Program-made: the position numbers and the translations under genes
Notes under the pieces: generated by a model
The model's database searches: none
What the model was told of the DNA's origin: nothing
Seen by the model: the letters and a program-made list of their open reading frames with translations, nothing else
Assembly (NCBI GenBank): GCA_964512105.1
Contig: CAZEGI010000004.1
Span: 5,692-60,252 of the forward strand
Origin: an uncultured archaeon
GTDB taxonomy: Archaea > Altiarchaeota > Altiarchaeia > IMC4 > CAZEGI01
Reading direction: 5' to 3'
Length of the DNA stretch: 54,561 bases
In this document: piece after piece, positions 2,006 to 40,502 of the stretch
Layout of the letters: each line of letters begins with the position of its first letter
Numbering within the stretch: the stretch's first letter is position 1

Positions 2006-2125
2006 TCATAACCTGACAGAAACGCCTTTTTCTTTTAGGTATTTCTTAACTTTTTTTATAGGATATTCGTTATAATGAAAGATACTTGCTGCAAGAGCCG
2101 CATCTGCCTTCCCTTTTGTGGAACC
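2006..2125 (-). pseudogene. remnant copy of the hisF 3' end (last ~39 codons plus stop)
   Basis: My reverse translation gives [38 protein letters not shown], against [38 protein letters not shown] in the intact hisF. The offset is exactly 169 nt (stop 2006 vs stop 2175). A 23-nt identical core ccgcatctgccttcccttttgtg sits at 2098-2120 and 2267-2289. Confidence 0.8.
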
Positions 2126-2126
2126 C

Positions 2127-2151
2127 CTTTCTTTCTTAGGAAGAAAGAAAG
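2127..2151. repeat. perfect hairpin, 11-bp stem with 3-nt loop, in the junction between hisF and its remnant
   Basis: CTTTCTTTCTT agg AAGAAAGAAAG, read directly from the sequence. It starts 24 nt downstream of the hisF stop. Confidence 0.85.
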
Positions 2152-2174
2152 TTGTTTCATCCCCAAAGAAAGAA

Positions 2175-2951
2175 TTAAAGCCTTACAGAGATATTGTTAT
2201 TCTTCAAGTATTTTTTTACGGTTTTTATTGGATACTCTCCATAGTGAAATATCGATGCAGCGAGCGCCGCATCTGCCTTCCCTTTTGTGAATGCTTCGAG
2301 AATGTGTTGGGGGTTACCAACACCGCCAGATGCTATCACAGGTATACTTACTGATTCAGAAACCAGTTTTGTAAGTTCCAAATCGAAACCTTCCTTTGTT
2401 CCGTCCCTGTCCATGCTCGTCAGCATTATTTCTCCGGCTCCGAGGTTTTCGACTTTTTTCGCCCATTCGAGGGTATCGAGACCCGTCGGTTCCCTGCCGC
2501 CATATATGTAGCACCCGTGCCCGGATTTGGTTTTTCCGGTTCTTTTGCTGTCAATAGCCACGACGATGCACTGCGAGCCGAATTTTTTTGCGCCCTCGGA
2601 AACGAGCTTCGGGTTTTTTATTGCCGCGGTGTTTACAGTGATTTTGTCTGCACCAACGTTCAGAATTTTTCTTATGTCTCCGATGGTTTTTATACCGCCG
2701 CCGACAGTTAACGGGATGAAGACTTTTTCTGCTGTTTTCTCGATGACATCAATCATCGTCGTTCTGCGCTCATGCGACGCGGTGATGTCAAGGAAAACCA
2801 GTTCATCCGCTCCTTCCTTGGAATATTTTTCAGCAAGTTCCCAAGGAATGCCTGCGTATTTTATCTGTTTGAACCTTATGCCTTTTACAACCCTGCCTTC
2901 GGGAACCGAAAGGTCGCAGTCCAAGCAGGGGATGATTCGTTTGGTCAGCAT
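2175..2951 (-). CDS. hisF: imidazole glycerol phosphate synthase cyclase subunit HisF
   Basis: Full-length match to the HisF pattern: [45 protein letters not shown]. Confidence 0.95.
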
Positions 2952-37900: not shown

Positions 37901-38408
37901 TAACCAGGATGTTGTTCTCGCCCTCGTAGTACGAATACGGCCTGACAAATTTTACCTTGACCTGCTTTTCGCCGCAGTGCGGACACTTTTGATTGTTGTT
38001 CGAAACCTTTATGGCCCTGTTCCATATCAGCTCGACCACGTCCTCTGTGCGCTCGAGTTTTTTGTATTTTTCAATGTCATCGGGTTTCAACAGTATTCTG
38101 CTGCATGCCCTGCATGTCCCCCGTATGAGGTTGAATATCTCGCGCGCGTATCCCACATGGATGACCGGGCGCGTCAGTTGTATATGGCCGAAGTGGCCGT
38201 AGCACTCGCCCAATCTTCCGCCGCATGTCTTGCACCTTATCCCCGGGTCGATAACGCCCAGCCGCGGATCCATCAACCCGCCGTCGATAGGGTAACCATC
38301 ATCATCGTAGGTGTTCGGGTCGTGTATTTTCGCAACCGAAAGTTTCTGCACCATTCGCGGCGAAAAAATCCCGAACTCCATATGGTCGATTTTCTTTTGT
38401 ACTATCAT
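34929..38408 (-). CDS. rpoA: DNA-directed RNA polymerase subunit A, unsplit (A' and A'' parts in one ORF)
   Basis: N-terminus has the A' zinc motif ([17 protein letters not shown]) and [10 protein letters not shown]. C-terminal third has the A'' region [30 protein letters not shown] and ends [10 protein letters not shown]. The frame is continuous across ...[31 protein letters not shown]... Start set to ATG 38408 (MIVQKK) rather than GTG 38429. Confidence 0.93.
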   Translation of the reverse strand: [1159 protein letters not shown]

Positions 38409-38424
38409 TTTTACTTTAAACCTT
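38397..38424. repeat. direct repeat copy A of the rpoB'-stop/rpoA-start junction
   Basis: ttgtactatcatttttactttaaacctt is identical to 38678-38705. It extends to 31/33 through 38429 vs 38710. Confidence 0.9.
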
Positions 38425-38677
38425 GTCACCGGGCCCTCATCGGCCCATTGTGTTTTATTTTTTCAAGACCATCGAGCGAAGCGAAGATGAGCAAGAGGCT
38501 TTGCCTCTTGTCTCAGACAAGACCATAGGTCTTGCTGATGGTCTCTGTTTTGGTCAGCGCAAAACTGCTTTGCAGTTTTGGCTCCGAACGAAGCGTAGCT
38601 TCGTTGGACACAAAATCTTCGATTTTGCTGTCCCAAAAGTGCTTAGCACTTTTGCGTAACCTTTTGTTAAAAGGTTG
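38425..38677. other. structured intergenic insert: array of eight perfect stem-loops
   Basis: - H1: 38431-38446, GGGCC/GGCCC.
- H2: 38492-38510, CAAGAGGC ttt GCCTCTTG.
- H3: 38518-38534, CAAGACC ata GGTCTTG.
- H4: 38560-38580, CAAAACTGC ttt GCAGTTTTG.
- H5: 38587-38605, AACGAAGC gta GCTTCGTT.
- H6: 38611-38627, CAAAATC ttc GATTTTG.
- H7: 38634-38654, CAAAAGTGC tta GCACTTTTG.
- H8: 38658-38676, AACCTTTT gtt AAAAGGTT.
All were checked base by base. Confidence 0.85.
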
Positions 38678-38705
38678 TTGTACTATCATTTTTACTTTAA
38701 ACCTT
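38678..38705. repeat. direct repeat copy B of the rpoB'-stop/rpoA-start junction (contains the real rpoB' stop)
   Basis: Identical 28-mer, offset 281 nt from copy A. Confidence 0.9.
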
Positions 38706-40502
38706 ATCGCTCAACCTCAATTTTGGGTAGATACACATACCCATGAGCTCGTTCAAGAGCAGTTTGAAGGCGTATGCGATTTCAACGTTGTGCGTCGGCA
38801 CTTCGCCGCATATCGGGCATCTAACAGTTCTCTGCTCGTAATCCCTGAGCGCGATTAAACCGCATTTCGAGCAGACAGGAACCATAACGCGGTCCGATTC
38901 GTCAAGCAAGCGGTCCTTGAGCATCATTGCTGCCCCGTGCCCGATAAGACAGTCGCGCTCCATTTCTCCGAATCTCAAACCGCCCTCGCGTGCACGGCCC
39001 TCGGTCGGCTGTCTCGTCAGCATCTGCACGGGACCGCGGGACCTTGCATGAAGTTTGTTCGCGACCATGTGGTGCAGCTTCTGGTAGTATATAACACCGA
39101 TGAAAATCTCGGCCTCAAAACGCTCGCCTGTTGAGCCGTCGTACATAACCTCCTTGCCGCTGTCACTGAAACCGGTCTTCTTTAGCGATTTCCGGAGTTC
39201 GTCTTCGGATTCATTGTCGAATGCAGTTCCGTTCACGAATCTTCCTTCTAATGATGCAACCTTTCCGCCTATCATCTCAAGGACATGGCCAATGGTCATT
39301 CTCGATGGTATTGCGTGCGGGTTTATTATGAGGTCCGGAACAACGCCGTCCTTTGTGAATGGCATGTCCTCCTGTGGGACTATCAGGCCGACAACGCCCT
39401 TCTGTCCGTGCCTTGACGCGAACTTGTCCCCGAGTTCGGGAACGCGCTGGCTTCGCACCCTTACCTTCGCGAGTTTGTGTCCCTCGGTCGTTTCGGTAAG
39501 GAGCACGCAATCTACCGTGCCAGATTCCATCTGTCTCACTGTCGTTGACGTTTCCCTCCTGCGCTCCTCGACAATACCGTAAGGCCCGATTTCCTCGAGG
39601 AATCGCGGTGGTGATGTTTTCCCTATGAGGACTTCACCCACATCAACGTCTGCCTCGGGAATTATCAGACCGTCGGCATCCAGCTTTGCATAGGTCTCCT
39701 CGGATTGTGTGCCATCAACCTTTCCGAGCGGTATCTCAAAGAGGTCGCGCTGTCCCGAAGGATAAGTTCGTTCTTCGGTGACATATGTTCGATAGAATGT
39801 CGAACGCCCGAGACCGCGCTCAACAGCGCTCTTGTTCAGGATTACCGCATCCTCCATGTTGTAACCGGCATATGACATGACAGCAACAACGAAATTCTGA
39901 CCCGCAGGTCTTTTTTCGTAGTTCAGAACCTGGGTTATGTCCGTCTGAACCAACGGCATCTGAGGAGTATGAAGCACATTCGACCTGCTGTCAAGCCGTG
40001 AGTAGTAATTTGACGAGTATATCCCCAGACTCTGCTTCGCCATAGCGGCAGCCATCGTTACTCTTGGGGATGAGTTGAATTCAGGGTAAGGCGCAAAGCC
40101 GGCGCTTAACCCCAGAATCATGGATGGAACGAGCTCGAGATGCGTGTGCTCCTTTGTGAGTTCGTCCCTGGTTACCGCGATGTACGCGTTCTCCTCTTCT
40201 TCGGCATCCACATATTCAACCACACCTTCGTTTATCAAGTCCTGCAGTGCTATCCTTCCGTTCTTCAGCTGCTCTTCGTGTCTTAAGGTGAGTTTCGGTT
40301 TTCCGTCCTCGACAACTATCAACGGTCTTAAAACCCTGCCCCTGTCGGTGTATATCTGAACCTCATTGTTTTCCTCGCGGTAGCTTATAGATGCGGTGCG
40401 CGGCAGCTTGCCTTCTCTTCTCAGGTTTCTCAACCTTTCTGCAAGTCCCTCTGGTCGCGAATGTTCCCCCATCAGCCTGCCGTTAAGATAAACGCTTGCC
40501 AT
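38697..40502 (-). CDS. rpoB1: DNA-directed RNA polymerase subunit B' (C-terminal part of split RpoB)
   Basis: 601 aa. [29 protein letters not shown] and a C-terminal zinc motif CSKCG...CPICG. Confidence 0.96.

Follow-up and report, generated by a model that had tools for sequence, protein, structure and literature searches.

The stretch of DNA analyzed here (the window, 54.5 kb in length) derives from Candidatus Altiarchaeota, and the closest genome records are ~70% identical in RpoA. At three places in the window, the end of a gene is present twice in direct orientation, with a small insert between the two copies. The genes concerned are hisF, cca, and the RNA polymerase gene pair rpoB'/rpoA (Table 1). 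The window genes have housekeeping functions and include those for V-ATPase, SecDF, topoisomerase VI, the CCA-adding enzyme, SecY, ribosomal proteins, RNA polymerase, queuosine-type genes, the Lhr helicase, and serine hydroxymethyltransferase. The genome is very compact; the majority of gaps between genes are shorter than 60 nt, and the three repeat loci rank with the longest ones. No matches were obtained when the window was scanned with Rfam or for tRNAs, and look-ups of the exact Cca and RpoB' proteins gave no record.

Table 1. Features of the three repeat loci (window positions; TA, toxin–antitoxin; ORF, open reading frame)
Feature	Position	Strand	Basis
hisF ORF	2175-2951	-	His_biosynth match, E = 8e-85
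Functional hisF 3' end, 39 codons + TAA, repeat copy 1	2175-2294	-	Repeat search (D1), codon alignment
hisF insert, 49 nt, with perfect hairpin 2127-2151 (11-bp stem, 3-nt loop)	2126-2174		Hairpin scan
Orphan hisF 3' end, intact frame of 39 codons + TGA	2006-2125	-	Codon alignment
Lineage-specific cargo: C-terminal 466 aa of a 758-aa protein + 172-aa ORF	65-1999	+	Gene order in L002-L006
cca ORF	25451-26788	+	CCA-adding enzyme domain matches
Functional cca 3' end (…EFYRFLGKFL + TGA), repeat copy 1	26757-26788	+	Repeat search (D6)
TA cassette: operator-like palindrome, antitoxin 26844-27065, ParE/RelE-like toxin 27067-27331	26789-27336	+	
Orphan cca 3' end (YRFLGKFL + TAA), 16 nt from secY stop	27337-27368	+	
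Repeat copy: functional rpoB' end (DKV + TAA), then orphan rpoA start (ATGATAGTACAA)	38678-38708	-	
Hairpin array, 250 nt: 7-8 perfect Watson-Crick hairpins (7-9-bp stems, 3-nt loops)	38428-38677	-	Hairpin scan
Terminal GGGCC-GATGAG-GGCCC hairpin of the rpo array	within 38428-38677	-	
Repeat copy: orphan rpoB' end (GAC AAG GTT TAA) + functional rpoA start	38397-38427	-	RpoA matches Rpb1 domains 1-5

Gene-end repeats at hisF, cca, and rpoB'/rpoA

In an all-against-all self-comparison of the window, the hisF, cca, and rpoB'/rpoA pairs took the top three ranks among direct repeats (E = 2e-9, 1e-7, and 1e-3), at the places where an earlier reading of the DNA (the original prediction) had located them. 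A protein-level scan of all gene termini in the window revealed no further gene-end repeat. The repeat length is variable, being 120, 30-32, and 31 nt in the window and 12-42 nt in related loci. The insert sits exactly at the junction of the two copies; the gene-joined copy keeps the gene intact, and the other copy keeps the context of the next gene. No terminal inverted repeats were found at the insert ends. The original prediction had described each case as an intact gene with an orphan copy beyond the inserted DNA, which applies to hisF and cca but not to rpo, where neither copy is merely an orphan. It had also stated that no integrase or transposase is visible, and this was borne out by family scans with Pfam, PHROGs, and NCBIfam, which detected none among the window genes or in the hisF-side cargo. 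None was present among the called genes of population contigs reaching up to ~4 kb past the hisF end of the window. The recombinase search on the host chromosome thus covered the window and the adjoining population contigs and cargo.

The repeat structures are identical in all JGI, ENA, and Logan contigs of this population that cover them, and an assembly artefact is for this reason unlikely as their source. Such an artefact would string allelic variants of co-existing strains in series; the copies are indeed allele-like, and several strains co-exist in the samples. However, the same structures emerged from different pipelines and samples (JGI, ENA k141, and Logan), the same signature occurs in unrelated metagenome-assembled genomes, the hisF copies are too dissimilar to confuse an assembler (see below), and a 551-nt TA cassette and unique hairpin sequences lie between copies. 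The probability of this explanation appears almost negligible.

The two hisF copies are spaced by 169 nt and show 73% identity over 109 nt. They are identical in the first 24 nt and diverged afterwards (32 differences), with 15 synonymous versus six nonsynonymous codon changes, among which are a switch of Ser codons (TCG/AGT) and switches of Leu codon family. The nonsynonymous and synonymous divergences (dN = 0.20 and dS = 2.1) give a dN/dS of 0.09. In 90 of 120 Altiarchaeota HisF homologues, the orphan peptide was nearer to the family consensus than the real C-terminus, and a comparison of the C-termini of these 120 homologues identified no donor lineage. In relatives, hisF abuts the convergent gene ilvB, with a 1-nt overlap in L142 and 7 nt in L147. 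In the window, the orphan hisF end lies 6 nt from the stop codon of the convergent 172-aa ORF, and three ORFan genes (172, 758, and 305 aa) separate it from ilvB; the 305-aa protein comes next after the cargo, outside the window. The hisF case, which adjoins this lineage-specific ORFan block, may represent the oldest import or the most distant donor. The three-gene cargo spans positions 65-1999 of the window and 2643-6418 of L002. Its proteins gave no family hits, and the 172-aa and 758-aa proteins are essentially ORFans in two large protein libraries (billions of proteins), where donor tracing via neighbors failed. The 758-aa protein is strain-variable (752 or 758 aa; 84% identity to the cluster representative) and has internal repeats.

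At cca, the last 9-10 codons and the stop codon are repeated with a spacing of 580 nt. The differences, all three of which had been called synonymous beforehand, are silent (TTG/CTG twice and TGA/TAA). The cassette between the copies consists of adjacent small antitoxin and toxin genes, as in type II TA systems, and intact homologous pairs with ParE or ParE-like matches are present in L151-L166. The antitoxin reached only a sub-threshold match to the ribbon-helix-helix (RHH) family RHH_5 of Pfam, and the toxin scored 22.9 bits against a ParE_toxin cutoff of 23; some sources name the antitoxin family RelBE/YafQ-DinJ antitoxin. A tblastn comparison with intact homologues showed a frameshift of the toxin at an A-run (near 27125-27135), with the 21 N-terminal codons in one frame and the rest in another. 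It is called as a 79-aa ORF in every population contig covering the locus, and homologues elsewhere are intact with 87-92 aa. Across Diapherotrites, Woesearchaeota, Micrarchaeota, and Nanoarchaeota, the antitoxin shows 70-82% identity and stands in unrelated contexts, and it was absent from the viral contigs examined. In relatives, cca and secY are convergent and tightly spaced (gap of 29 nt in L012 and ~55 nt in L114). The cca/secY junction is also a hotspot: it holds the TA cassette in the window and ~1 kb of cargo that differs between lineages in L104 (18259-19217) and L134 (17792-18840); small unknown ORFs are part of this cargo, as is a cupin-domain protein.

The rpo repeat runs from the last three codons and stop codon of rpoB' across a 7-nt spacer into rpoA, of which it includes the first four codons. 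Its copies are spaced by 281 nt and identical at 30 of 31 positions; the sole mismatch (GAT/GAC) is silent, as had been stated for the first difference in rpoB'. The array between them folds far more stably than expected (z = -8.9), and each of its hairpins differs in sequence, without a single consensus. One hairpin is identical in L126, a related one is found in L092, and single hairpins are shared with L126, L092, and L013. An uninterrupted junction is seen in L013, where rpoB' and rpoA' overlap by 4 nt. RpoA of the window (34929-38411, minus strand) is one fused protein of ~1160 aa containing Rpb1 domains 1-5; it is fused also in L012, and split into the usual A' and A'' in L013, L092, L126, and L130. 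The duplicated rpoA start and its upstream context open a 58-codon ORF (~38520-38696, minus strand) into the array. This ORF is annotated as a gene in L137 and L140 and is probably spurious.

Further hairpins occur elsewhere in the window. A perfect 13-bp hairpin at 8982-9010 has as its 3-nt loop the stop codon TAA (minus strand) of a V-ATPase subunit gene (8995-10827), and its post-stop arm repeats the last 13 coding nucleotides in inverted form, which suggests that palindromes can arise by local fold-back copying. Other perfect hairpins with 10-11-bp stems are located at 52625-52675 and 46639-46661, two of the few longer intergenic regions; a flanking repeat was not detected at either. The window hairpin CAAAACTGCTTTGCAGTTTTG was absent from viral contigs. 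The module GTCGTCGGCNAANTCCGAC gave 59 matches in viral contigs, mostly to one conserved stretch of phage contigs with 65% GC, and these were rejected as unrelated. Apart from the gene ends, two features were noted at 29750-30598 and 30470-32080: K/E-rich short repeat motifs (repeat families D2 and D4) are common to several ribosomal protein genes, and ribosomal protein S5 is unusually long with 282 aa.

Recurrence in related loci

The recurrent signature noted in the original prediction is real and was also found at further genes and in further genomes, both of Altiarchaeota and of other DPANN archaea. In two other Altiarchaeota, L126 and L130 (= L134), the rpoB/rpoA junction holds a hairpin array between 38-42-nt repeats that comprise the final 12-13 rpoB codons. 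In L130, the same multi-hairpin element of 121-126 nt occurs again after a ribosomal protein gene with 92.6% identity. The repeat at its borders is here another, local one, namely, AAAGGGTGAAAT with the last wobble base and the stop codon, which contains the Shine-Dalgarno-like GGGTGA of the next gene. The ribosomal protein gene-end repeat is seen in both L130 and L126. L104 has a 71-nt hairpin element enclosed by two copies of the last 13 secY codons, with ~1 kb of cargo past the orphan. A 39-nt gene-end repeat surrounds an 84-nt hairpin insert in L040 (Micrarchaeota). L101 contains a tRNA-like sequence in which both parts are duplicated, the 3' part as a 26-nt repeat and the 5' part as a 36-nt repeat, with a hairpin array between the copies in each case. 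This sequence (5570-6130) was missed by ARAGORN and appears to hold a hairpin-rich intervening sequence; the GG of the D-loop is changed in its orphan 5' copy.

The inserts are thus of two sorts, palindromic hairpin modules and an RHH-ParE/RelE cassette circulating among DPANN archaea. A homologous TA cassette lies behind a glycosyltransferase gene (Glycos_transf_4) in Diapherotrites (L152-L156). Its flanks are a 24-25-nt repeat of the last seven codons and stop codon of that gene, with three silent differences. The repeats around the cassette in L151 and L157 were not significant. Hairpin arrays were found at ~10 places in 0.52 Mb of Altiarchaeota loci versus one in 1.35 Mb of other archaea. 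The modules are repeated within genomes (121 nt at 92.6% identity in L130, 115 nt at 90% in L092, and 49 nt at 96% in L124), and in L092, an arbitrary sub-segment of an array is the copied unit. At a position where L130 shows no more than a single hairpin loop, L126 contains additional hairpins, which resembles nesting in this single comparison. The arrays in the rpoB/rpoA spacer of L012 and L092 have no detectable flanking repeat. A bare gene-end duplication with no insert was not found in ~0.5 Mb of Altiarchaeota loci. A metagenome scan for relatives yielded nothing closer than ~68% identity, hence no empty sites at the nucleotide level. Our literature search returned no account of such hairpin arrays or silent-only orphan gene ends in Altiarchaeota.

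These loci bear on the attP/attB-type integration put forward in the original prediction. Small elements would carry an attP site including a gene 3' end, the repeats would be attL and attR, and the tyrosine or serine recombinase would be encoded elsewhere or lost. Gene 3'-end repeats with one copy restoring the gene are the classic signature of attachment sites, the hisF pair has a 24-nt identical core before it diverges, and parts of a tRNA-like sequence are duplicated in L101. However, the repeats range from 12 to 120 nt without a common core, and the hairpin-only inserts of 49-250 nt encode nothing. The same hairpin element in L130 is bordered by two unrelated local repeats, and homologous TA cassettes carry cca-derived repeats in one case and GT4-derived repeats in the other. 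In addition, the rpo repeat covers parts of two genes, the duplication in L101 involves both the 5' and the 3' part of the tRNA-like sequence, and no recombinase is present in the window or cargo. Site-specific integration is therefore improbable.

An ordinary target-site duplication would result from a transposase, casposase, or Cas1-like integrase acting in cis or in trans, with neutral divergence of the orphan afterwards. The length of the duplication is not fixed (12, 24, 26, 31, 36, 38-42, and 120 nt), terminal inverted repeats with constant ends are lacking, and the copied unit in L092 is an arbitrary segment of the array. The overwhelmingly silent differences are unlike neutral decay of an orphan, and the frame of the hisF orphan is intact despite a dS of ~2. 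The rpo repeat (31 nt with one mismatch) does look like such a duplication, as do the nearly identical 38-39-nt repeats of L126 and L040, and the hairpin modules are multi-copy in relatives. We assign a low probability to this explanation. The original prediction had excluded a duplication made by a transposase; this holds for a classical transposase duplication, but the rpo repeat, which spans two genes, behaves as a long target duplication. Off-target integration by CRISPR Cas1-Cas2 was considered and rejected. Casposons, which make fixed duplications of 14-15 nt, were also rejected; integrase att sites, fixed-stagger transposons, REP/BIME-like elements, and casposons each differ from the structures in at least one defining feature.

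A third possibility is that unrelated events were superimposed, i.e., slippage produced tandem duplications of gene junctions that were tolerated, and hairpins or cassettes later landed in the new spacer. A compact genome offers no other neutral landing sites, and the stop-codon-centered hairpin at 8982-9010 suggests that fold-back copying can make palindromes. This scenario is nevertheless quite improbable: the insert is in every case exactly between the copies and never inside one, the Altiarchaeota loci contain no insert-free duplication, and the copies differ like selected alleles, as described below.

Silent differences between the copies and short imports

Nine short repeat pairs together contain 25 synonymous and two nonsynonymous codon changes. 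In a simulation that placed the same numbers of transitions and transversions at random, the summed log10 P was -14.3 (combined P ~1e-14). Both nonsynonymous changes fall in the old ribosomal protein orphan of L126. The secY pair in L104 has eight differences, all silent, including CGC/AGG and TTG/CTA. The differences are skewed toward the stop-codon end, which lies beside the insert, and the stop codon itself differs in eight of the nine pairs. Mutagenesis of the diversity-generating retroelement type was rejected, as the differences are not adenine-specific.

Because the copies differ almost only at silent positions, they appear to be different selected alleles of one gene end and not decaying duplicates. 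A duplication followed by neutral decay of the orphan would not give a silent-only pattern, which implies that both copies were once functional. Judging from the codon changes, both must have evolved as functional gene ends in separate lineages and have come together recently. The proposal that the copies are two versions of a gene end rather than products of decay is in line with the dN/dS of hisF, the all-silent secY pair of L104, and the combined P value of the nine pairs.

Selection on both copies could also be explained if the intervening DNA were skipped, either by RNA splicing (e.g., of the bulge-helix-bulge type) or by translational bypassing. The first copy is always terminated by a stop codon, and thus there is no need to skip. 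The insert at cca constitutes an autonomous TA operon that brings an operator-like palindrome of its own, and the ribosomal protein orphan of L126 shows nonsynonymous decay. A single fold of the hisF region revealed no evident splicing motif, although this is not a rigorous test. Consistent with skipping are the silent-only divergence of both copies, the hairpin-rich inserts, the same anatomy in the tRNA-like sequence apparently with intervening hairpins, and the preservation of the reading frame when exactly one repeat unit is deleted. On balance, we consider skipping very improbable.

Exchange with diverged alleles was also apparent outside the repeats. The contig L009, from a co-occurring strain, has a 53-nt patch in cca (25834-25886) with 16 differences, corresponding to 11 synonymous and two nonsynonymous codon changes, such as CGA/AGG, AGA/CGT, and TTA/CTG. 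Outside the patch, L009 differs from the window at just three scattered sites over ~5 kb around cca. The patch has the appearance of a short segment imported from a far more diverged allele. A second micro-patch of four differences in 7 nt (27377-27383), in the spacer between the cca orphan and the secY stop codon, is present in L138 and L011 and defines two population haplotypes. Together, the two patches indicate that mosaic exchange with quite distant alleles happens in this population. Recombination with a diverged relative, the other mechanism suggested in the original prediction, fits the 53-nt patch.

Origin of the inserts and relation to known systems

Here, we propose that the structures arose by insertion with long target duplication at gene boundaries, with no recombinase involved, combined with allelic exchange between related lineages; we give this reading about an even chance of being correct. 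We infer that host recombination, not a dedicated enzyme, makes or spreads the structures. Two routes can be envisaged. In the first, the insert would arrive linked to the gene end of a related lineage. One side would be joined via short homology and the other by an illegitimate join (homology-assisted illegitimate or Campbell-like recombination), and the resident end would be left as the orphan. This route agrees with the idea of the original prediction and predicts the observed skew of the differences toward the insert. In the second route, a primary long target duplication would be generated by template switching at palindromes or by capture at a staggered break, and later allelic exchange would leave a tract ending inside a repeat. 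Both routes fit the data. A primary event of the second type would be needed at least once per locus, because one and the same hairpin element is found at unrelated loci with a local repeat at each, as is the TA family.

The original prediction had also invoked a common insertion mechanism that targets gene termini. The signature does recur, but with most gaps shorter than 60 nt, the targeting may be largely a survivorship effect. Only events that duplicate a terminus would leave both neighbors intact and survive; since a genome without spare intergenic DNA keeps only such events, gene ends would appear to be targeted. Overall, the earlier interpretation is partly supported.

Several points weigh against insertion with long target duplication followed by allelic exchange. 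For recombination of the RadA type, 25-40 nt of homology with 80-90% identity would be a very short stretch. The structures are known from assembled contigs, and uninterrupted junctions for all three loci come from relatives that are only ~60-85% identical at the protein level. The rpo array has no second copy in 54 kb, and its mobility is deduced from relatives. As to the silent differences, repeat boundaries were set by similarity, and the trimming of nonmatching ends slightly favors a silent-only result. Furthermore, L126 and L130 share events, and the nine pairs are not fully independent.

A more far-reaching reading is that the repeat-flanked micro-inserts constitute a class of recombinase-free mobile DNA in Altiarchaeota and other DPANN archaea. 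An insert would pop out via recombination between the flanking gene-end repeats, travel as DNA between related cells, and re-enter at the same gene end by host homologous recombination. The 3' end of the host gene would act as the attachment site, and the repeats would be regenerated as hybrid alleles. Such a cycle would account for the silent-only differences, for the junctions reoccupied across lineages (rpoB/rpoA and cca/secY), and for the absence of an integrase. We regard it as unlikely, although conceivable.

The closest described class is insertion with long target duplication (Nobusato et al. 2000). The present structures share with it a small cargo between long and variable direct repeats that would match a single-copy target sequence, the absence of mobility genes and inverted repeats, repeats that often overlap a gene 3' end, and an addiction-type cargo (restriction-modification there and TA here). 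They differ in that the cargo is a TA cassette or, more often, noncoding hairpins, with no restriction-modification system. Some repeats are also shorter (12-30 nt), in part below the 30-bp threshold of the published screen, and silent-only differences were not reported for the class. In bacteria, the class comprises restriction-modification cassettes between variable repeats of 30 to >400 bp, without mobility genes (PMC2853133). Its mechanism is unknown, and the survey contains no archaeal case (PMC2853133, Furuta, Abe and Kobayashi 2010).

Small variable segments in bacteria have been tentatively ascribed to homology-assisted illegitimate recombination (PMC2884548). Homology-facilitated illegitimate recombination, known from naturally transformable bacteria, resembles the first route in combining one homologous anchor with an illegitimate join and in using host functions only (PMC2884548). 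It would set the donor allele of the anchor gene beside the new DNA, and the allele-like differences and their skew to the insert-proximal end fit this expectation. In contrast to such events, the present inserts have no identified donor genome. Homology-facilitated illegitimate recombination is described as yielding deletions or replacements of recipient DNA and is not known to yield duplications, and the anchors used in experiments are described as longer than 25-120 nt. It is not known from archaea.

In archaeal integrative elements of the SSV and pNOB8 types ("gene capture"), repeats of the gene 3' part likewise flank foreign DNA and the gene stays intact. Unlike these elements, the present inserts are tiny and have neither an integrase in the window nor a constant core, and the 5' part of a tRNA-like sequence and a two-gene junction are also duplicated. 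The hairpin arrays are reminiscent of repetitive extragenic palindromic sequences and bacterial interspersed mosaic elements (REP/BIME), of REPINs (PMC3116915), and of the small dispersed repeats of cyanobacteria, which are extragenic palindromes arrayed after stop codons and repeated within genomes. They differ from REP/BIME in that the hairpin sequences all differ, no RAYT-like gene was seen in the window, and long target duplications flank the arrays. The cassette at cca resembles type II TA systems of the RHH and ParE/RelE families, which are widely transferred, in its small upstream antitoxin, overlapping toxin, and operator-like palindrome. It departs from them in the frameshift of the window toxin and the sub-threshold RHH match of the antitoxin.

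For genome annotation, these events are a trap, as they leave pseudo-termini and small ORFs that are spurious, the 58-codon ORF opened by the duplicated rpoA start being an example. Silent-only orphan gene ends could mark exchange between lineages in uncultivated populations. If the proposed reading is true, the long-target-duplication class would extend from bacterial restriction-modification genes to archaea, TA cassettes, and noncoding hairpin modules. Extremely compact archaeal genomes would then gain DNA without dedicated mobility enzymes, and gene ends, not intergenic DNA, would mark the scars.

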